From NCBI GenBank assembly GCA_027007025.1, contig JALTFL010000004.1, positions 4,773-68,772 on the forward strand: a stretch of 64,000 bases of DNA. The letters are read 5' to 3'. The stretch's first letter is position 1, and every line of letters begins with the position of its first letter. Below, piece by piece: positions 16,181-60,042 of the stretch. The translations under genes and the position numbers were made by a program. Source of the DNA: Nanobdellati archaeon (GTDB lineage Archaea > Nanobdellota > Nanobdellia > CSSed11-243R1). The notes under the pieces are model-generated. The model was not told the origin of the DNA. It was given only the letters and a program-made list of their open reading frames with translations, and did no database searches.

Positions 16181-16294
16181 TGGGCCCGGGGGGATTCGAA
16201 CCCCTGGCCTCCTGGTTAAAAGCAACACCTTCAAATCCAATTTTATTAGAATGAATTTGAAACAGGCGCTCTGACCAGGCTGAGCTACGGGCCC
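16181..16294 (-). tRNA. tRNA-Lys (anticodon UUU) with a roughly 39-nt intron at a non-canonical position in the anticodon stem
   Basis: Minus strand reads GGGCCCG-TA-GCTC-AGCCTGGTCA-GAGC-G-CCTG[intron]G-CTTTTAA-CCAGG-AGGCC-AGGGG-TTCGAAT-CCCCC-CGGGCCC-A; acceptor stem 7 bp, canonical D-arm and T-loop; one A:C mismatch at the top of the T-stem. Confidence 0.6.
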
Positions 16295-16380: not shown

Positions 16381-16500
16381 TTTATATACCTTTCTATGCA
16401 CTTTCTCTTTCTTAGAAATAAAGAGAACCTGCGCTAAGAGAAAGAATTTCTTCCGGCAAAACCTTTCTTTGGAAAAGAAAGCTGCAGGAAAGAAAGAAGA
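16381..16500. repeat. Hairpin-repeat region (ttctcttt-cttagaaat-aaagagaa; gaacctgcgctaagagaaag; ctttcttt-ggaa-aagaaag)
   Basis: Inverted repeats with pyrimidine and purine arms; contains the shared 20-nt motif in inverted orientation. Confidence 0.5.
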
Positions 16501-16504
16501 AAAA

Positions 16505-17749
16505 CTAATTGTATTCAGGGTTAGTTACTCTGCCCATGAATAGAATTTCGCCCGTATTTTTGTCCTCGATTATAAACATGAATGGATGATTTGCCCTAAA
16601 AACAGGTTGATGCATCTGAACAGCTGTAATCCCAACCGATACTTCTGTCGCAGCTGCTGCTTCCGTTCCCTCTTCATTTACATCAATGTATGCTTGGTGG
16701 ATTACACTTTGTATTAACAATCCACCTTTCTTTGACATACCAGTTAAATCCGCACCATATGAAAATGGTGTTGGCATTCCCATTTCCTTCAAATCATTTG
16801 CCATAAAATATTTTGTTTCAAATTTAAACCTCGGCAGGTAAACCCTAACTTCCTCACTGTGAAGCTTGCTTGTCAAATCATTTATTTTTTCAACGCTCAA
16901 ACTGTTTTCAAAATCATCTAAACTTCTTGGCAAGAAAACAATCATCGACAAGTTTCCTTTATATGGCAGCTCTAAAACTTGCGTTTCATTTTTTTCATAG
17001 TATGGAAAATCTTCTTTTATATACATCATATCAACAGAAATGTTGCCATCTGGTGTGATAAAATCTTCTTTGTGGGTTGCATTTTTGTTAAACTGGTGGC
17101 TCCAGTTTCCCTTGAAGTAAATCGCATTCGTCAAGACAAGGCGCGTTGCGGAGTTTAGTACTCCTTTCGGAATCAAGTCCTTTATTTTTCCGTTTGTCTG
17201 CTGTTCAATCCAAGTGTTTATTATATTACGTGCAGATTCCTCATCCGCAAAATTTAGATTTGTAACTTTTCCGCCATAAAATTCTTCAATTATATCAAAG
17301 TAATGCTGTGAAAACGGAAAATCTTTCTGCGCCCAAAGGGCGTTTGCAGTTCGCAAGGTATAATTCTCATTTGGAGTGTTGAGTATGTTGTAAATATGCG
17401 CGAACGAAGTCCTCAGCTCGCTCGTATTTCCAGGAAAATAAAAGACATTTTTTATTTCCTTCGCAGTTCTTCCGCGGGCACCCTCATAAACCATAGCAAA
17501 AGCAGATGATATGCTGTATGGCGAAAAGAAAACATTCTGATTTTCAAACTCTGTTGAGTATTTCTTGTACAAATCAATTGCGAACTTGTTGTTTGCTTCC
17601 GCAACCGCATTGAATCCTTGCGAAGTCCAACCACTATCCTTTAAGATAATAGCGTCTTTTGAAGTGATATTCTTTGGAGTAGTTACGCAGCCAAACACAA
17701 TCGCAACAGCGAATATAACCACAATTCCCATCAAAAATTTCGAGTTCAT
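16505..17749 (-). CDS. Serpin (serine protease inhibitor), secreted with lipobox-like signal
   Basis: Hinge EEGTEAAAAT, C-terminal PFMFIIEDKNTGEILFMGRVTNP, N-terminal hydrophobic segment ending FGC. Confidence 0.85.
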   Translation of the reverse strand: MNSKFLMGIVVIFAVAIVFGCVTTPKNITSKDAIILKDSGWTSQGFNAVAEANNKFAIDLYKKYSTEFENQNVFFSPYSISSAFAMVYEGARGRTAKEIKNVFYFPGNTSELRTSFAHIYNILNTPNENYTLRTANALWAQKDFPFSQHYFDIIEEFYGGKVTNLNFADEESARNIINTWIEQQTNGKIKDLIPKGVLNSATRLVLTNAIYFKGNWSHQFNKNATHKEDFITPDGNISVDMMYIKEDFPYYEKNETQVLELPYKGNLSMIVFLPRSLDDFENSLSVEKINDLTSKLHSEEVRVYLPRFKFETKYFMANDLKEMGMPTPFSYGADLTGMSKKGGLLIQSVIHQAYIDVNEEGTEAAAATEVSVGITAVQMHQPVFRANHPFMFIIEDKNTGEILFMGRVTNPEYN

Positions 17750-17945
17750 ATATCTTGTAATACACTAGAATATATTAAGATTTCCATGACTTCAAAATCA
17801 ATAGAAATCATCTTCGTTTTCTGTTCCTATTCTTCTTCCTGCCGCGGCTCTTCTGTTTTATGATGTCTTTTCTCTTTAACCGCTTTCCTTTCCGCTTTCC
17901 CTTTCTTGATTTTGGCTGAATTGTTTTCATAAAAACACCTAGAGT

Positions 17946-17953
17946 AAAAAAAA
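17946..17953 (-). terminator. Oligo-T (T8) run immediately 3' of tRNA-Asp
   Basis: Eight T on the minus strand two nt after the discriminator base; archaeal-type oligo-T terminator. Confidence 0.4.
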
Positions 17954-17954
17954 G

Positions 17955-18195
17955 CGCCCCGACCGGGACTTTCAAACACTCGCCAAGTTTCTCTCTTAGC
18001 GCAGGTTCTCTCTTTTCAAAGAGAGAAAGTGCTTTTGAACCCGGGTCCCCGGCTTGCTGCACTCCGGAATTTCTTCCGCTGGCGCTTCTTTCTAAGAAGA
18101 GCCGTTCGACAGACCGGGATCCTAGACCAACGTCCAACCACTTTCTTTCCGTGAACTCTTTCTTTGGAAAGAAAGGGTTCCTAGACTATCGGGGC
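17955..18195 (-). tRNA. tRNA-Asp (anticodon GUC) with three introns (D-loop, anticodon loop 37/38, T-loop)
   Basis: Acceptor GCCCCGA/TCGGGGC, discriminator G; exon pieces GTCTAG...TTGGTCTAGGAT-C-CCGGT-CTGTCG[48-nt intron]A-GCCGG-GGAC-CCGGG-TTCAAA[intron]T-CCCGG; introns carry hairpin repeats; D-loop exon boundaries uncertain. Confidence 0.6.
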
Positions 18196-18238: not shown

Positions 18239-18398
18239 TCCCAGCGGCCGGACTTTCGAAGCCCACCCTGAGTTTCTTTCCCTCAAGGCTCTCTTTTTGA
18301 AAGAAAGGCTTGGTCGAACCAGCAACCTCACGGTTTCAACGATGGATTTCTCCACCATACCACTACAGCCGTGCGCTCTACCATTGAGCTACGCTGGG
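18239..18398 (-). tRNA. tRNA-Tyr (anticodon GUA) with two introns (anticodon loop 37/38, about 28 nt; T-loop, about 60 nt)
   Basis: CCCAGCG-TA-GCTC-AATGGTA-GAGC-G-CACGG-CTGTAG[intron]A-CCGTG-AGGTT-GCTGG-TTCGA[intron]..-CCGGC-CGCTGGG-A; C1:G72 and A73 as expected for archaeal tRNA-Tyr; anticodon intron contains a GGTGGA-GAAA-TCCATC tetraloop hairpin. Confidence 0.65.
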
Positions 18399-21732: not shown

Positions 21733-22656
21733 TCACCTGGAGAATTCCTTCCTTAAGATATCAACTGAAAAATATATTAATATTGCCAGCAGAGTTGCCT
21801 TGCAAACTATAAAAAAAGTTGGGATTAAGTTCAAATCAACTTGACGAGGTATATGCCCTAAGGATACATCTATTCCGTTGCCGGATACACAAACTCTTGT
21901 GTACGTAACATTGTTATCATTACCCAAATTCACATACTTTACCCCTTCTTTTTCAAAAACAAAGTCTTTCTCATTTGATGAAATTACAAGAGTGACATTT
22001 TTCTCCCTGAATAAATAATCCAAGAGTTTCCCGTCTGGTGTTTCATACTTACTCTCTGACGGATTTATTATAGGATTATTCATTATTATTACTTTATTTT
22101 TAGCATTATCTGAAAGGGATTTATTCAACCAATTATACTGGTCTATATCAATGCTCCCCAAGCTGTTGTCTAATATAATAAACAATGAATTTGAAGTATT
22201 AAACGAAAAATAAGGATTACCAAAAATCGATTTAAACATTAAATCACTCCCATATGGGCTTTCGCTGCTGCCTATCCCAAAAATAGTAGGAACATCATAT
22301 CTCCTTGCGTTGTGAACAAATTGAGAATACTCTTCGATTATACCTTCGTCTATGAAGTTTCCATCTATCACAACAAATGAGGAATCACCACTTAAATTCA
22401 AAAAATGGTTGAATATATATATATCTCCGTTAATGTTGCCTATTACGGAAAAGCAATAGTTTGAATCATTTTTTATATCACTTATCTGATGATTATTCCA
22501 ATTGTTAGCCGGAGGGATATAACCTATTACAATAATACTCACAAGAATAGCTACAACAAGCACCATCATCCATTTATTTTCCATTTTCAGCAATATTCTA
22601 AATAAGGACACAAATTTAAAAGTTATGAAACTACTAAAAAAATCCTTTCTTTCCAA
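21733..22656 (-). CDS. Hypothetical membrane-anchored protein
   Basis: N-terminal and C-terminal hydrophobic helices, N-x-S/T sequons; no confident family assignment. Confidence 0.45.
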   Translation of the reverse strand: MERKDFFSSFITFKFVSLFRILLKMENKWMMVLVVAILVSIIVIGYIPPANNWNNHQISDIKNDSNYCFSVIGNINGDIYIFNHFLNLSGDSSFVVIDGNFIDEGIIEEYSQFVHNARRYDVPTIFGIGSSESPYGSDLMFKSIFGNPYFSFNTSNSLFIILDNSLGSIDIDQYNWLNKSLSDNAKNKVIIMNNPIINPSESKYETPDGKLLDYLFREKNVTLVISSNEKDFVFEKEGVKYVNLGNDNNVTYTRVCVSGNGIDVSLGHIPRQVDLNLIPTFFIVCKATLLAILIYFSVDILRKEFSR

Positions 22657-22684
22657 GAAAAAGTGTTCGAGTCTTTTTGAAAAA

Positions 22685-22895
22685 GCCCGACAGAAAACTT
22701 TCTCTTAGTGCAGCTTCTCTTTTCTAAAGAGAAGATGCTTCTTTTGGTAAAGCTTTTCCAACACCCTTCTTAGAAAGAAGCATACGGAAGAAACCCCGCT
22801 TTCTTTCTCTTAGCCCATGTTCTCTTTCTTTTAAGAAGGAGAAAAATTTTTTCTTTTCCGGACGCGCTTTTCTTTTTTCTAAAAAGAAAAGGGTG
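22685..22895. repeat. Hairpin-repeat region 3' of tRNA-Pro, with a degenerate tRNA-3'-end-like segment
   Basis: Hairpins cttctctt-ttcta-aagagaag and cttttcttttt-tcta-aaaagaaaag; motif ctcttagtgcagcttctc; minus strand ends GTCGGGCTTTTT, resembling the tRNA-Asp 3' end. Confidence 0.5.
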
Positions 22896-22899
22896 TTAG

Positions 22900-23131
22900 T
22901 GGGGCCGCCGAGATTTGAATTCCCGGACCATGCCAACTTCTTTTCCGTTGACGCTTTTCTTTTAAGAAAAGGGTCACTCGGGACCACGTGCATTCCAGGG
23001 TTTCTTTGGTTGAGCTTTCTTTCCCAAAGAAAGATCACCCCAGGCACGCATCCTAGACCAAGTTGTCTGCTCTTTTCTCCCTCTTTTGGTAGAGCTTTTC
23101 TCGGGAGAAAAGGCCTCTAGACCACGGCCCC
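22900..23131 (-). tRNA. tRNA-Pro (anticodon GGG) with three introns (D-loop, anticodon loop 37/38, T-loop 54/55)
   Basis: Acceptor GGGGCCG/CGGCCCC, discriminator A; GTCTAG...TTGGTCTAGGAT-G-CGTGC-CTGGGG[intron]T-GCACG-TGGTC-CCGAG-T[intron]TCAAAT-CTCGG; introns contain hairpins ctttcttt-ccc-aaagaaag and cttttctc-ggg-agaaaag. Confidence 0.6.
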
Positions 23132-23163
23132 ACAGTTAAATTAAAGAACAAATTATTTTAAAA

Positions 23164-23417: not shown

Positions 23418-25562
23418 CTAAAAGTCATCAATCTTAGAATTTAAACTTTTCTTTGTTACTTGTCCCCTTATCTTTTCGGCAGTTTTTCTGCCGACAATAG
23501 ATGCAAGCTTCTCAATCGGCGCCTTCTTGACGTCAGCGAGAGTTTTTATGCCGGCGCGGTAAAGCTTCCTCGCCCTGACTCTCCCAACGCCCTTGAGAGC
23601 GAGAAGATTAAGTAATTCTTCCTTTGCGCCGTTCTTCATCCTCAGGCGCAGCTTGTTAAGCGGAAGAAGCAAGTCCTTTACTTTCATTATTCTCGCGAGC
23701 TCGTAAGCGGAGTAAAGCAGCCAATCCGAGATATAAATCCTGTTTCTCAATACTCCCGGCGTCTCCTTGTATTCTTCCAGAATGGACGCGTCCGTTTTCT
23801 CGTTTATCCAGTCAAATAGCATCAATGATGTCTTAAAGGCGCGCACCCATACTTCATAATCCAAATCCCATGGGCTCGGCTCCTCAATTTCATCCGAAAA
23901 GTCAAGGTATTTGTTTTGGAGCTCTGTGAATTCCCTCGGCGAAACCCTGAGCAAAGGAAACATCTCGTTGCACGAGCATATTGAGTGAATCCAGAACATC
24001 TCGTTTTTCCTTCCGGATTTTATTTTTTCTATCAGCAAGTGCGCGGACTCTGGGTCGATATACAGCTCGGCAACCCTCTTGCCAATTCGGGTTGGGAGCA
24101 ATTTTTCTTTGGTGGAAGAAACAAAACCATATTTCAGAAGCAGTCCAATCACCTTGTCAAGCTTGACTTCAATTTTTCCCATATCGGCGTACTGCTGGGC
24201 GAAAAACGTCTTCGAGAAAAATTTCAACAGATTTTTTCTGCTCGAAACTTCCCCGCTCGCAATCAGTCCCAAAACCTGCATCCTCAAAATCGGTTCCGCG
24301 GAAAGCTTGGAATAAATTTCCTCCGGATTTCCTTTTACATACTTTTCAAAAATTTCATCCTTTTCAATTTCGGAGCGCGCAATCATAATCGCCCTGCCTT
24401 CTCTGTCAAACTTCGGGCGTCCAGCGCGTCCAAACATCTGCTGAACTTCAAGCACGGGCAGCCAGTTGCTTCCGTAGTCAGGGGAATATCTTTTAAGGTC
24501 TCTGACGAGAACTGTGTGGCTTGGAAGATTTACCCCGAAAGCAAGAGTCGGTGTCGCGGATATCAGTTTTATCAGTCCTTTCTTGAAAGCGTCTTCAATC
24601 ATCCTTTGCTGCTTGCTAACAAGTCCGGCATGGTGAAAAGCCGTCCCGTGCTTAACACATTCACTCAAAATTTCGCATTGCCTCGTCGGCGACTCAAGAA
24701 CATGCAGAATGTCATAACTCAACTTTTCAAGCTTTTCTCTTTCTTCTTCCGTCAGATATTTGTCGACTATTTTTTTGGCGTTCTTAGCGACTGCCTCGGC
24801 GTTCCTTCTACTCGAAAGGAAAACAAGAATCTGCTTTTTCATCTCAAGAGTGTCTTTTATTATTTGGTGCTCCGGCAGTTTTGCCTCCGGAAGTTTTTTT
24901 ACCTTGTCCTCAAAGTAAAGTTTCCCGTCAAGGTAAACACCATACTCCAACTCCACAGGGCGATATGTGCTCCTCACAAGGCTGGCATTGAGCCATTCTG
25001 ACAGCTCATCCGCGTTCTGTATTGTCGCGGATAGGGCTATAAGCTGGGCGTCCTTGCAGAACTCCTTAAGTCTCGTTATCAACACTTCAAGGGTAGGTCC
25101 CCTATCGGGCTGGTCAAGCACGTGTATTTCATCTATAACTATAGTGTTTACTTCGCGCAGCCAAGGCACATTGTGCCTCATAAGGGAATCCAGCTTCTCG
25201 TTCGAGCACACAATTATATCTGCCTTTTGAAGCCACGGGTCGCTCGAGTCAAAGTCACCTATCGACAGCATAACATTTAGAAAAGGATATCTTTCCTTGA
25301 ACTCATTGTACTTCTCGGAAGCGAGAGACCTCAAGGGCGTCAGATAAATTGCCTTTCCGCCTTTTGTCAAAATATTGTTGACAATCGCAATCTCGGCGAC
25401 AAGAGTCTTACCGCTCGCGGTCGGGCTGGCTATAACTAAATTTTTGCCCTCAAGAAGTCCCTCGTTAATCGCAAGCTCCTGGGGGGGACGAAAACTTTCT
25501 ATGTCTTTTAATCTATCATAGAGTTCTTTCGGGAGTTTATGCTTTATGTGTATCGGCTTCAC
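23418..25562 (-). CDS. hel308: Ski2-like DNA helicase (Hel308/Hjm family)
   Basis: Walker A ASPTASGKT, DEIH box, C-terminal helix-hairpin-helix LLALKGVGRVRARKL. Confidence 0.8.
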   Translation of the reverse strand: MKPIHIKHKLPKELYDRLKDIESFRPPQELAINEGLLEGKNLVIASPTASGKTLVAEIAIVNNILTKGGKAIYLTPLRSLASEKYNEFKERYPFLNVMLSIGDFDSSDPWLQKADIIVCSNEKLDSLMRHNVPWLREVNTIVIDEIHVLDQPDRGPTLEVLITRLKEFCKDAQLIALSATIQNADELSEWLNASLVRSTYRPVELEYGVYLDGKLYFEDKVKKLPEAKLPEHQIIKDTLEMKKQILVFLSSRRNAEAVAKNAKKIVDKYLTEEEREKLEKLSYDILHVLESPTRQCEILSECVKHGTAFHHAGLVSKQQRMIEDAFKKGLIKLISATPTLAFGVNLPSHTVLVRDLKRYSPDYGSNWLPVLEVQQMFGRAGRPKFDREGRAIMIARSEIEKDEIFEKYVKGNPEEIYSKLSAEPILRMQVLGLIASGEVSSRKNLLKFFSKTFFAQQYADMGKIEVKLDKVIGLLLKYGFVSSTKEKLLPTRIGKRVAELYIDPESAHLLIEKIKSGRKNEMFWIHSICSCNEMFPLLRVSPREFTELQNKYLDFSDEIEEPSPWDLDYEVWVRAFKTSLMLFDWINEKTDASILEEYKETPGVLRNRIYISDWLLYSAYELARIMKVKDLLLPLNKLRLRMKNGAKEELLNLLALKGVGRVRARKLYRAGIKTLADVKKAPIEKLASIVGRKTAEKIRGQVTKKSLNSKIDDF

Positions 25563-56632: not shown

Positions 56633-58681
56633 TTGCTCATGAACGAGAAAGCAGCTAGTTTTGAAGATGGGGTAATCGAAAAATTCGAAGAATTCATTAA
56701 CAAAAGGTATCTTTCCAATTTAAGCACAGCCCTAAACACGGGCATGCATTCTCTGATTGTGGATTTTACCGAACTTGACAAGTTCGACCCCGAGCTCACA
56801 GATTTTCTCATTGAACAACCCGAAGATGCTATAAAATTATTCCAGTCAGCACTCAAAAGAATCGAAATGGTTCCTGAAGATGAAGAATTAAACATCAGGT
56901 TCTCAAACATTCCCGAGAGCAAAAGAATTCTCATAAGAGATATACGAAGCAAACATATAGATAAAATGGTTTCAATTGAAGGACTCATAAGACAGGCATC
57001 AGATGTTAGGCCTGTCTCAAGAATTATAACCTTTGAATGTCCTGCATGCGGAACTAAAATTGATATGCCCCAATCCGGAACGACAATCAAAGAACCAACA
57101 GTTTGTGTGAATTGTGGAAGACGTGGAAAGTTCAAATTAGTCGATAAAACATTAGTTGACACACAAAGAATTGTTTTAGAAGAATCACCTGAACAACTTG
57201 CAAGCGATGCTCAGCCAAGAAGAATGAGCATTTTCTTAACTGACGATTTGGTGGACCCAAAAATTGAAAAGAAAACTGTCCCAGGTAGTAGAGTTATAAT
57301 TACGGGTATCGTAAAAGAAATACCAATTGTGGATAGGGGAACAAAAAGCACGAGATTTGATTTGATAATAAATGCAAACAACATTGAGCCTTCCGAAAAA
57401 GAATTTGACGAGATAGAACTCACACCAGAAGACAAAAAAATAATAGAAGACATGTCAAAGGATCCCTTGATAAATAAAAAATTGATAAACTCAATAGCCC
57501 CAAGCATTTATGGATATGAAACCATCAAAGAAGCAATTGTTCTGCAATTGTTTGGTGGGATAAGGACAAAAAGGCCTGACGAAACGAATGTTAGAGGAGA
57601 TATACACATTTTATTAGTCGGAGACCCTGGTGTAGCTAAGTCACAATTGTTGAAATATGTCTCAGCTGTGGCACCAAAGGCTAGATACGTATCAGGAAAA
57701 GGCGCAAGCGGCGCGGGATTAACTGCATCCGTAGTCAAAGATGAATTCTTAAAAGGATGGTCCCTTGAAGCAGGAGCTATTGTCCTCGCGAACAAAGGTA
57801 TTTGCTGTATAGACGAAATTGACAAGATGGAAAAGGAAGATAGGGTTGCAATGCACGAAGCGATGGAACAACAAACAATCACAATCGCAAAGGCAAATAT
57901 ACACTCAACCCTAAGAGCAGAAACGACAATTCTCGCGGCGGCAAACCCAAAGTTCGGAAGGTTCGACCCTTACAGGCCCATCGCGGACCAAATTGACATG
58001 CCACCAACCTTGATTTCAAGATTTGATTTAATATTCCCAATTAGAGATATCCCTGACAAAGATAGAGACAGCAAACTTGCAGAACATATACTTTCATCAT
58101 TCAGAAAACCCGAGAAATTAGTTCCGGAAATATCCCCTGAATTAATGAGAAAATATATCGCATACGCGAAGAGGTACATACATCCAAAACTTTCTAAAGA
58201 AGCATCTGATGAAATAAAATCCTTTTTCGTTGGACTCCGTTCTCAAAAGAGTAGAGGTGATGAGGAACTTAAACCAATCCCAATATCGGCAAGACAACTT
58301 GAAGCTATGGTAAGATTATCACAGGCATCCGCCAAAATTAGACTCAGTAATATAGTGGAAGGAAAAGATGCGAGAAGAGGAATTAGAATTATGAAATACT
58401 GTCTAAACAAAGTGGGGATGGATACAGAGACAGGAGAATTAGATATTGATAGAATTGCTACAGGTATATCCACTTCCCAAAGAAATAAGATAATGACTGT
58501 GAGAAACATAATCAGAGAATTAGAGTCGAGATACGGCGCCAATGTTCCTCTAGCAGATGTCATCGATGCGGCAAAATCAAAAGGAATAGATGAATCCCGT
58601 ATAGAAGAGATTATTGAAAAGATGAAAAGAAGCGGCGAACTTTTCGAACCAAAGCACGGCGTAATAAGACGCATGCCCTAA
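56633..58681 (+). CDS. mcm: MCM replicative helicase
   Basis: Zinc finger CPACG...CVNCG, Walker A GDPGVAKSQLL, Walker B CIDEIDKM. Confidence 0.9.
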   Translation: MLMNEKAASFEDGVIEKFEEFINKRYLSNLSTALNTGMHSLIVDFTELDKFDPELTDFLIEQPEDAIKLFQSALKRIEMVPEDEELNIRFSNIPESKRILIRDIRSKHIDKMVSIEGLIRQASDVRPVSRIITFECPACGTKIDMPQSGTTIKEPTVCVNCGRRGKFKLVDKTLVDTQRIVLEESPEQLASDAQPRRMSIFLTDDLVDPKIEKKTVPGSRVIITGIVKEIPIVDRGTKSTRFDLIINANNIEPSEKEFDEIELTPEDKKIIEDMSKDPLINKKLINSIAPSIYGYETIKEAIVLQLFGGIRTKRPDETNVRGDIHILLVGDPGVAKSQLLKYVSAVAPKARYVSGKGASGAGLTASVVKDEFLKGWSLEAGAIVLANKGICCIDEIDKMEKEDRVAMHEAMEQQTITIAKANIHSTLRAETTILAAANPKFGRFDPYRPIADQIDMPPTLISRFDLIFPIRDIPDKDRDSKLAEHILSSFRKPEKLVPEISPELMRKYIAYAKRYIHPKLSKEASDEIKSFFVGLRSQKSRGDEELKPIPISARQLEAMVRLSQASAKIRLSNIVEGKDARRGIRIMKYCLNKVGMDTETGELDIDRIATGISTSQRNKIMTVRNIIRELESRYGANVPLADVIDAAKSKGIDESRIEEIIEKMKRSGELFEPKHGVIRRMP

Positions 58682-58707
58682 CCCACCTTCTCTTTAGAAA
58701 AGAGAAG

Positions 58708-60042
58708 TTGGACCAAGAGAAATGTGATATGATGAGTGAAAATATTCCATACGATGCAATTGAAAAAAAAGATTCTGAGATTTTCAAGTACTTAAATCTT
58801 GAAGTTGAAAGACAAAAGGAAGTTCTCAACATGATTCCTTCCGAGAATTATGTCTCAAAGGCTGTGCTTGAAGCCAGCGGAAGTATCCTAACAAACAAAT
58901 ACGCTGAAGGTTATCCAGGAAAAAGATATTACCAGGGCATGTCAAATGTCGACGAGATTGAAAAGATTGCAATCGAAAGGGCGAAAAAACTTTTCGGGGC
59001 AGAGCACGCAAATGTCCAGCCATACTCTGGAAGCCCGGCGAACGCGGCAATTTATTACGCTCTTTTGAAACCCGGAGACAAGATAATGGGAATGCGACTC
59101 GACATGGGCGGACACCTTACGCACGGGCACAACGTCAATTTCTCGGCGCGTTTTTACAAGTCAACACCTTATGTTCTCGACAAGGAAACCCAAATGCTTG
59201 ATATGGACGAAATAAGAAAACTTGCAATCAGAGAAAAACCGAAATTGATAATTTCTGGTTATACAGCATATCCGCGAAAAATTCCATTCAAGGAGTTTCA
59301 TGAGATAGCTGAAGAAGTCGGCGCGTATTCAATGGCGGACATTTCCCACATATCTGGATTGATTGTCGGAGGCGTTCATCCTTCACCTTTTCCATTCACG
59401 GATGTTGTCATGACAACAACACACAAGACGCTTAGAGGTCCACGCGGGGCAATTATTCTCTCAAAAAAAGAGGACAGACTCGCGAATGTTGAAGGGCTTG
59501 ACGAAAAGAAGGCAAAAAGGGCAAAGAATCTCGCCTTGAAAATTGACAGGGCTGTTTTTCCCGGACTGCAGGGAGGACCACACATGAACGTAATCGCCGC
59601 GAAGGCAGTAGCCTTTGAGGAGGCAATGACGCCGGAGTTCAAGGATTACGCGAAACAGGTTGTAACAAACGCAAAAGTGCTTGCGGAAACTCTTCTTGAC
59701 AACGGCGTAAAACTTGTTACTGGCGGAACTGACAACCATTTGATTTTAATTGACTTGACACCTATTGGCGTCGGGATTGGAAAGGAAGTCGCTGTCGCCC
59801 TTGAAAACGCGGGCATAGTCGCGAACATGAACACAATTCCATACGACCCGTCAACGCCGTTCAAGCCGTCGGGATTGAGAATCGGGACTCCGCTTTTGAC
59901 AACACGCGGAATGAAAGAGGAAGAAATGCAAATAATCGGCGAGTGGATTTCAAGAATAATCCTCAACAGAAAAGACGCCGCGCTCCAAAAGAAAACAAAA
60001 GAAGAAGTCAAAGCGCTCTGCGAGAAATTTCCTTTTTACTAA
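58708..60042 (+). CDS. glyA: Serine hydroxymethyltransferase
   Basis: PLP-lysine motif TTTHKTLRGPRG. Confidence 0.9.
   Translation: MDQEKCDMMSENIPYDAIEKKDSEIFKYLNLEVERQKEVLNMIPSENYVSKAVLEASGSILTNKYAEGYPGKRYYQGMSNVDEIEKIAIERAKKLFGAEHANVQPYSGSPANAAIYYALLKPGDKIMGMRLDMGGHLTHGHNVNFSARFYKSTPYVLDKETQMLDMDEIRKLAIREKPKLIISGYTAYPRKIPFKEFHEIAEEVGAYSMADISHISGLIVGGVHPSPFPFTDVVMTTTHKTLRGPRGAIILSKKEDRLANVEGLDEKKAKRAKNLALKIDRAVFPGLQGGPHMNVIAAKAVAFEEAMTPEFKDYAKQVVTNAKVLAETLLDNGVKLVTGGTDNHLILIDLTPIGVGIGKEVAVALENAGIVANMNTIPYDPSTPFKPSGLRIGTPLLTTRGMKEEEMQIIGEWISRIILNRKDAALQKKTKEEVKALCEKFPFY

Follow-up and report, generated by a model that had tools for sequence, protein, structure and literature searches.

The 64-kb window analysed here (64,000 nucleotides of contig JALTFL010000004.1) contains an interrupted tRNA-Pro(GGG) gene on its minus strand, 232 nt long (23131..22900) and divided into four exons and three introns. 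An earlier note on this DNA had proposed such a gene from its fragments, and all of these are found on the minus strand within 22900-23131: the acceptor halves GGGGCCG/CGGCCCC, the anticodon arm CGTGC-CTGGGG..T-GCACG, the T-arm CCGAG..TTCAAAT-CTCGG and the D-arm exons GTCTAG..TTGGTCTAGGAT. When the exons are joined computationally, ARAGORN recognises the product as a perfect 76-nt tRNA-Pro(GGG) cloverleaf, its stems all perfect or with G-U pairs, and its invariant positions U8, A14, G18G19, A21, U33, G37, G53, T54-C56, A58 and C61 in place. Exon G+C content is 65%, against 38% for the window. Together with bulge-helix-bulge (BHB)-type cores at all junctions and the exact presence or absence of introns in orthologues, in silico splicing bears out the three-intron proposal. 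We consider it very probable that the gene is functional in its host, a DPANN archaeon, and that the gene's introns, at positions 15/16, 37/38 and 53/54, are removed by protein-dependent splicing.

Exon and intron anatomy of tRNA-Pro(GGG)

Boundaries were placed by a single rule, a cut after the second base of the 3-nt bulge that follows a 4-bp central helix, and only boundaries that restore the tRNA were evaluated. An unconstrained scan of precursors for BHB geometry was dropped because the introns are of low complexity and it returned dozens of spurious candidates.

Exon 1 (GGGGCCGTGGTCTAG, 23117..23131; this and the following features are all on the minus strand) supplies the acceptor 5′ strand, U8, G9, the D-stem 5′ strand, A14 and G15. 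Intron 1 (54 nt, 23063..23116) splits the D-loop at 15/16. It has a central helix GTCT/AGAC, bulges AG-A and AA-C (the hyphen marks the cut) and an inner helix CUUUUCUCCC/GGGAGAAAAG of 10-12 bp. Exon 2 (CTTGGTCTAGGATGCGTGCCTGGGG, 23038..23062) begins CTTGG and holds the D-loop remainder, the D-stem 3′ strand, G26, the anticodon stem 5′ strand and loop positions 32-37 with the anticodon GGG. The earlier note had the D-arm divided by about 50 nt; the division stands, with its boundary shifted by one base on the strength of BHB geometry and of the unsplit D-loop in the Dive96 orthologue (AGCTTGGACCA; see below), with which the mature D-loop AGCTTGGTCTA agrees.

Intron 2 (45 nt, 22993..23037) lies at the canonical 37/38 site, exactly as had been proposed. 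Its central helix CTGG/CTGG includes two G-U pairs, the bulges are GG-T and AA-T, the inner helix is UUUCUUUGG/CCAAAGAAA and the anticodon stem serves as outer helix. Exon 3 (TGCACGTGGTCCCGAG, 22977..22992) comprises position 38, the anticodon stem 3′ strand, the variable loop and the T-stem 5′ strand. Intron 3 (57 nt, 22920..22976) interrupts the T-arm; placed previously at 54/55 with some 56 nt, it fits best at 53/54, with the same product. A central helix CCCG/CGGG and bulges AG-T and AA-T are followed by an inner helix GACC/GGTC, which encloses the hairpins CUUUUCU/AGAAAAG and GUCAAC/GUUGGC, the latter looped by a mirror tract GGAAAAGAA. Exon 4 (TTCAAATCTCGGCGGCCCCA, 22900..22919) completes the T-loop, the T-stem 3′ strand and the acceptor 3′ strand, ending at discriminator A73; CCA is not encoded.

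A TATA-like A/T-rich box, TTTTAAAATAA (23153..23163, minus strand), is read from the sequence 22-32 nt upstream of tRNA position 1 and is presumed to be the archaeal promoter element of the gene. Boxes resembling TTTTTAAA are likewise present some 30 nt before tRNA-Tyr, tRNA-Asp and the orthologues. The unspliced gene is missed by ARAGORN (default and long-intron modes) and by Rfam (gathering and E-value thresholds). With three introns this miss is expected and is no evidence against the gene; it explains the absence of the locus from routine annotation. An open reading frame (ORF) of 107 aa (22724-23047) that overlies the tRNA and the array downstream is almost certainly spurious.

A BHB-type core can form at three of three junctions. 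The precursor has a minimum free energy of -92.5 kcal/mol (z = -4.25 against shuffles), and its unconstrained fold already holds the acceptor stem, the intron 1 core and the intron 3 inner helix; enforcing all three cores jointly gives -76 kcal/mol. Central helices are retained in relatives through wobble-preserving changes (AGAC/GGAC/GGGC; CTGG/CCGG). The 232-nt precursor would be transcribed from its own A/T-rich promoter, and the four exon bases before each 5′ site would pair with the four intron bases before the matching 3′ site, forming a central helix with cut sites in 3-nt bulges. An archaeal EndA accepting relaxed motifs would cut at the bulges, an RtcB-type ligase would join the exons and CCA would be added post-transcriptionally, none being encoded. 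We infer transcription, enzymes and splicing order from established archaeal tRNA biology.

Several points weigh against this reading. The motifs are relaxed, not strict, BHBs: introns 1 and 3 are of the HBh′ type, without an outer exon-exon helix, and intron 2 is of the hBH type, with two G-U pairs in its central helix and an inner helix that is poor in strict register. At intron 2 the free-energy minimum favours CUGGGGU/ACCCUGG over the canonical motif. Relaxed hBH and HBh′ motifs are cut only by broad-specificity endonucleases (PMC4090602, PMC5829648), so an enzyme of that kind is required, and EndA was not found in the 64-kb window or the fetched loci of about 15 kb (tblastn with an approximate M. 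jannaschii EndA query, a weak test). ARAGORN was the sole tRNA detector applied to spliced sequence, and intron excision is itself a prediction from sequence. The view covers 64 kb, and an intact tRNA-Pro(GGG) may lie elsewhere in the genome.

Conserved exons and intron turnover in sister genomes

All genomes compared are metagenome-assembled genomes (MAGs), that of the window viewed over about 64 kb and the relatives as loci of about 15 kb. The neighbouring genes in the window are of archaeal kind: one encodes a helicase of the Hel308 type that has the archaeal domain 4, and RNA polymerase subunit B is split. Hel308 is 82-87% identical to its counterparts in AUK188, AUK136 and Dive96_bin10.467 (hereafter Dive96), MAGs labelled Nanoarchaeota or archaeon, and remoter RpoB′′ relatives are labelled Nanoarchaeia, Woesearchaeota and Parvarchaeota. 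From these neighbours and labels, the host is a DPANN archaeon.

Syntenic tRNA-Pro orthologues adjoin Hel308 in all three relatives. The AUK188 gene has the same intron set as the window (15/16, 37/38, 53/54). AUK136 has introns at 15/16 and 53/54, and its 37/38 site is exactly empty (CGTGC-CTGGGGC-GCACG). The Dive96 tRNA-Pro(GGG) has a diverged body, with introns at 37/38 and 53/54, an extra one at 59/60, an empty D-loop site and an unbroken D-arm. Against the window, the exons of AUK188 and AUK136 are identical at 75/76 positions—exons 1, 2 and 4 are invariant and the sole difference is position 38 in exon 3 (T versus C)—and the introns at 43-90%. The 53/54 intron is present in all four genomes, the window copy being 90% identical to that of AUK136. 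Syntenic orthologues in three sister genomes, their exons identical or with compensated changes and their introns variable, put the structure far beyond chance.

Conserved exons with exactly present or absent introns indicate an exon-intron structure and argue against both tandem partial copies and a pseudogene. Tandem partial gene copies, an alternative raised with the original proposal, are refuted by the unbroken anticodon loop of AUK136 and the unbroken D-arm of Dive96. Tandem Repeats Finder reported nothing at the tRNA-Pro locus. The TGGTCTAG repeat flanking intron 1, considered as a tandem copy, is part of the D-arm of the mature tRNA, and distant tRNA-Pro genes have it too.

A dead tRNA-Pro gene, riddled with local repeat insertions that are never removed and backed by a working tRNA-Pro(GGG) elsewhere, is improbable. 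It would account for the silence of standard tRNA finders at the locus, and it draws on the 64-kb limit of the view and on the intergenic copies and downstream array of the intron module described below, which show that this module can insert outside tRNA genes. Yet the exons are 75/76 identical where Hel308 is only 82-87% identical, and the introns diverge or are replaced. Each insertion is framed by a 4-bp helix and two bulges at exact splice sites, with compensating changes that maintain the helices, and excision brings back every invariant tRNA base. The syntenic gene is interrupted in four of four genomes, tRNA-Asp, tRNA-Tyr and tRNA-Lys are of the same design, and four essential tRNAs are unlikely to be pseudogenes in four genomes.

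Further interrupted tRNA genes and intron exchange

Three further interrupted tRNA genes lie in the window on the same strand as tRNA-Pro. tRNA-Asp(GTC) (17955..18195, minus strand) has three introns, in the D-loop at 15/16 (18180..18130), at 37/38 (18106..18055) and in the T-loop at 59/60 (18033..17969). Its D-arm exons (18195..18119), GTCTAG and TGGTCTAGGAT, are the same as those of tRNA-Pro, the shared architecture that the earlier note had pointed out. tRNA-Tyr(GTA) (18239..18398, minus strand) has two introns, at 37/38 and at 59/60 in the T-loop. It is the direct neighbour of tRNA-Asp, which ARAGORN calls on spliced sequence, and a separate TTTTTAAA-like box belongs to each of the two genes. 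The 28-nt tRNA-Tyr 37/38 intron is a poor BHB fit (central helix CTGT/GTTG) and is 89-96% conserved in the window, AUK188 and Dive96, the AUK136 copy being shorter and diverged. tRNA-Lys(UUU) (16181..16294, minus strand) carries one 39-nt intron at 30/31 in the anticodon stem, with a clean BHB (central helix CGCC/GGTG, inner helix TTCAAAT/ATTTGAA). It is the only tRNA of the window detected by ARAGORN or Rfam, and ARAGORN miscalls it as Leu(CAA).

These three genes and their orthologues, the latter retrieved through RpoB′′ homologues, share the same build and give clean cloverleaves after splicing. The tRNA-Lys intron occupies the same site in AUK188, AUK136, Dive96 and a JGI metagenome contig (L156), and is elsewhere or absent in three more distant loci (L138, L157, L158). 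The tRNA-Asp T-arm intron sits at 59/60 in the window; AUK188 and Dive96 have it at 53/54, and AUK136 and L156 lack it. AUK136 also lacks the tRNA-Tyr T-loop intron.

The earlier note had suggested that introns spread between tRNA genes and had looked to the D-loop introns of tRNA-Pro and tRNA-Asp for a common origin. Within the window this fails: the two are 57% identical, which is background for a low-complexity intron family. Across genomes it holds. The window Pro D-loop intron matches the AUK188 Asp D-loop intron at 50/54 positions (93%), against 70% and 59% for the Pro D-loop introns of AUK188 and AUK136, and the window Asp D-loop intron groups with those same AUK188 and AUK136 Pro introns (77% and 73%). 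From these alignments, the two D-loop intron types are apparently swapped between Pro and Asp in sister genomes. Four different intron cores occupy the Asp D-loop site across five genomes. The AUK188 Pro 37/38 core matches the AUK136 Asp D-loop core at 51/56 aligned positions. Between the Pro 53/54 intron of AUK188 and the Tyr 59/60 intron of the window, 49/59 positions agree (80% identity).

Near-alike introns thus occur across tRNA species and positions and do not follow the relatedness of the tRNA bodies. The window tRNA-Asp reads TGGTCTAGG, like tRNA-Pro, and tRNA-Asp in AUK188, AUK136, Dive96 and L156 reads TGGCCTAGG, a difference that hints at co-conversion of flanking exon bases. Intron cores were most likely exchanged between tRNA genes and positions by DNA-level recombination or gene conversion between copies, the route also favoured in a review for intron movement in Thermoproteales (PMC4090602).

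The identity of the D-arm exons is a different matter. Unrelated metagenome contigs (among the matches listed, L015, L042, L044, L074, L083, L093, L106 and L120; L015 has three introns) contain tRNA-Pro(GGG) genes with the acceptor GGGGTCG/CGACCCC in which a 40-70-nt D-loop intron divides the same GTCTAG..TGGTCTAGGAT D-arm, and this makes D-arm identity in itself weak evidence of transfer. The D-loop introns of those contigs lack the module described below. The scan that found them (GTCTAG-N40-70-TGGTCTAGGAT) was too permissive a pattern, its listed matches being mostly chance ones and including no relatives from the clade. Judging by these contigs, a D-loop intron near 15/16 in tRNA-Pro(GGG) would be either old or recurrent.

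Mis-joined repeats in assembly or binning could mimic both introns and the Pro/Asp swap, all genomes here being metagenome-assembled and the elements being short repeats. We regard such an artefact as scarcely credible. An intron with both flanking exons spans less than 100 nt, below typical read length; Pro and Asp lie on one contig in the window and again in AUK188; and the same architecture recurs in orthologues from four to five independent samples. For the serpin-RNA polymerase region, as distinct from the tRNA-Pro locus, the serpin gene and its neighbours are alike in GCA_015522785.1 contig WALP01000002.1 and in an independent ENA scaffold of 528 kb.

A mirror-purine module within and outside introns

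Introns of the family share a layout in which a pyrimidine tract (Y, 6-11 nt) is followed by a 2-4-nt loop, a complementary purine tract (R), a C-rich spacer of 6-8 nt and a second purine tract (R′) that mirrors R. Intron 1 of tRNA-Pro has Y CTTTTCTC, R GAGAAAAG and R′ (C)AAAAGAG. Counting one representative per distinct sequence (17 distinct sequence families), identity between R′ and the mirror image of the R in the same unit is 94%; with permuted partners it is 76%, and none of 5000 permutations reached the observed level. Of 14 informative families, 13 fit a mirror better than a direct repeat (p about 0.001), and the longest asymmetric units match as mirrors at 11/11 positions. A candidate role for R′ as a second Watson-Crick partner of Y fits only symmetric units and the '...ACC-AAAAGAA' type and fails for long asymmetric units, and the direct-repeat match is significantly worse than the mirror match; this role is rejected.

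The window holds 11 strict module units where first-order Markov resamples predict 0.04. All five genomes whose RpoB′′ identity is 83% or higher have the family, and no strict unit occurs in the loci fetched at 76-79%. The intron family appears young and, on this distribution, confined to one subclade. The module is absent from the tRNA-Lys 30/31 and tRNA-Tyr 37/38 introns. Two predicted folds recur. In one, two hairpins are adjacent and R′ is the loop of the second; in the other, Y pairs over a long range with a distal purine tract, and the helix so formed also serves as the inner BHB helix. Some introns carry two or three units in tandem, as in the Tyr 59/60 intron of L156 (about 119 nt, L156:117-235) and the Asp 53/54 intron of Dive96 (88 nt, L136:6191-6278), and a partial unit, GCGTGTACGGAAAGAAAAG, lies in the tRNA-Tyr 3′ trailer of L156.

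Copies also stand free of any tRNA. Directly 3′ of tRNA-Pro is a 250-nt array of about four to five units (22650..22899, minus strand; for example CTTTTCTTTTT-AGA-AAAAAGAAAAG-CGCGTCCG-GAAAAGAAAAA), two of which have perfect 11/11 mirror tracts. No tRNA exons could be assembled from it by eye, and it is missing downstream of tRNA-Pro in AUK188, AUK136 and Dive96. Further copies at 185-235, 2766-2810, 16395-16505 and 58687-58725 (plus strand) are intergenic or intercistronic, as is one between rpS12 and rpS7 of Dive96 (L136:15257-15300). Free copies often begin a few bases from a stop codon, in either orientation relative to the adjacent gene: units directly follow the stop codons of genes 2168-2764 and 56633-58681, and antisense units follow gene 281-1546 and the serpin gene. 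The copy at 16395-16450 has GCACTTTCTCT...AACCTGCGCTAAGAGA in common with the tRNA-Asp 59/60 intron, and the copies at 185 and 22891 have a TAACACC flank and the CGCGTCCG spacer in common. Scans of viral contigs gave no matches to an 8-mer module and 17 uninspected matches to a 7-mer one, with no sign of viral origin.

A conserved internal module is not needed by the BHB model, which raises the alternative that the insertions are removed by another route, through a module-recognising nuclease or by processing of the pieces as separate fragments. Two of the three motifs being relaxed would suit this alternative, as would the failure to find EndA in the window and fetched loci, weak as that test was. 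We think it very improbable. The module-free tRNA-Lys 30/31 and tRNA-Tyr 37/38 introns, the former with a clean BHB, imply that the ordinary pathway must exist; the module occurs where no excision is needed; the introns fall far below the size of self-splicing group I or II elements; and the BHB rule fits the splice-site geometry at every site tested. BHB-dependent excision remains our preferred reading.

In order, polarity and spacing, the Y-R-R′ module has the architecture of an intrastrand purine-motif triplex, of the purine type on the transcribed strand. Its composition is not the one that favours triplexes: each tract is rich in A and contains one to three G, and G-G-C triplets drive purine-motif triplex stability (PMC4666352). 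Purine-motif triplexes are, moreover, reported not to form in RNA (PMC4666352). For both reasons we treat the triplex as a hypothesis only, one that would be more plausible in DNA than in RNA. A tentative and rather doubtful extension is that these elements form a family of about 45-60 nt in which a triplex or H-DNA-type core makes the DNA recombinogenic. Such cores would jump or convert between sites that supply BHB flanks and would seed the intergenic copies, providing the missing mechanism of archaeal tRNA intron movement. The observed jumps are from Pro to Asp D-loops, from D-loop to anticodon loop and from 53/54 to 59/60. If the idea is true, this lineage would be a live system for tRNA intron transposition.

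Known systems and neighbouring reading frames

Archaeal tRNA genes with up to three introns, introns at 53/54 and 59/60, relaxed hBH and HBh′ motifs and intron transposition are all established (PMC4090602, PMC4033280), and the tRNA-Pro gene is in itself an ordinary member of this known class. The closest parallel is with Thermoproteales (Fujishima et al. 2010, as summarised in PMC4090602 and PMC4033280), where genes likewise have up to three BHB-type introns with relaxed motifs, at 53/54 and 59/60 among other sites. There, as here, near-identical introns occur across tRNA species and positions, incongruent with tRNA phylogeny and with rapid lineage-specific gain. Unlike those Crenarchaeota, the host here is a low-G+C DPANN archaeon. 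Its introns bear the pyrimidine/purine/mirror-purine module, free copies of which sit in intergenic and intercistronic DNA, and cores are replaced at fixed sites, with an apparent Pro/Asp swap. A full-text literature search did not find the mirror-repeat module, its free intergenic copies or core replacement and swap at fixed sites described.

Within the same superphylum, Nanoarchaeum equitans (split tRNAs, heteromeric EndA) and the Micrarchaeota ARMAN-1 and ARMAN-2 (epsilon2 EndA) also have non-canonical multiple introns that need a broad-specificity endonuclease (PMC3239211, PMC5829648), and DPANN EndAs with an L3 loop have been reported (PMC5829648). In contrast to those systems, no split or permuted genes were seen here, and the intron family with its module was not found described for them. 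tRNA genes with two or three introns, D-arm and T-arm ones among them, and with BHB-like junctions are also known from the Guillardia theta nucleomorph and from the red alga Cyanidioschyzon merolae (PMC4090602, PMC3728597). Those genomes are eukaryotic and their introns very short (nucleomorph, 3-24 nt), whereas the neighbourhood here is archaeal.

The module itself recalls the bacterial PIT/BoxC/TM repeats (Hoyne et al. 2000; Holder et al. 2015, PMC4666352), short interspersed and mostly intergenic elements that also combine a pyrimidine tract, its purine complement and a fold-back third tract. PIT/BoxC repeats have been linked to local genome instability and to sequence turnover between close strains, and a stable triplex in vivo has not been shown even for the bacterial PIT motif (PMC4666352). 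The bacterial motif is G/C-rich and lies outside RNA genes, whereas the present module is A/T-rich, archaeal and the core of tRNA introns.

Blindness of routine annotation to such genes makes DPANN genomes appear short of essential tRNAs, a gap flagged before with the prediction of undetected disrupted tRNA genes in genomes with seemingly incomplete tRNA sets (PMC5829648). The tRNA-Pro, tRNA-Asp, tRNA-Tyr and tRNA-Lys genes described here fill part of it. The mechanism of archaeal tRNA intron transposition is stated to be unknown in a review (PMC4090602). Here four to five close genomes catch intron movement in the act, with one site bearing four cores, an apparent Pro/Asp swap and one core at differing positions in different tRNAs. 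Occurrence of a structured module outside tRNA genes as well makes the transposition question approachable by experiment.

Two features of the neighbouring reading frames deserve mention. The window Hel308 orthologue (23418-25562, 714 aa) has no intein, and the AUK136 Hel308 beside tRNA-Pro has one with a LAGLIDADG homing-endonuclease domain, in a product of 1222 aa (L137:1-1392, L004:7035-8540). Just downstream of tRNA-Asp, at 17808-17930 on the minus strand, lies an ORF of 40 codons whose product, MKTIQPKSRKGKRKGKRLKRK...NRNRKRR, is extremely basic; the mechanical ORF list gives it only in an over-extended version of 109 aa (17808-18137). AUK188, Dive96 and L156 have comparable small ORFs rich in Lys/Arg at this position, and the 40-codon product may be a small ribosomal-type protein.

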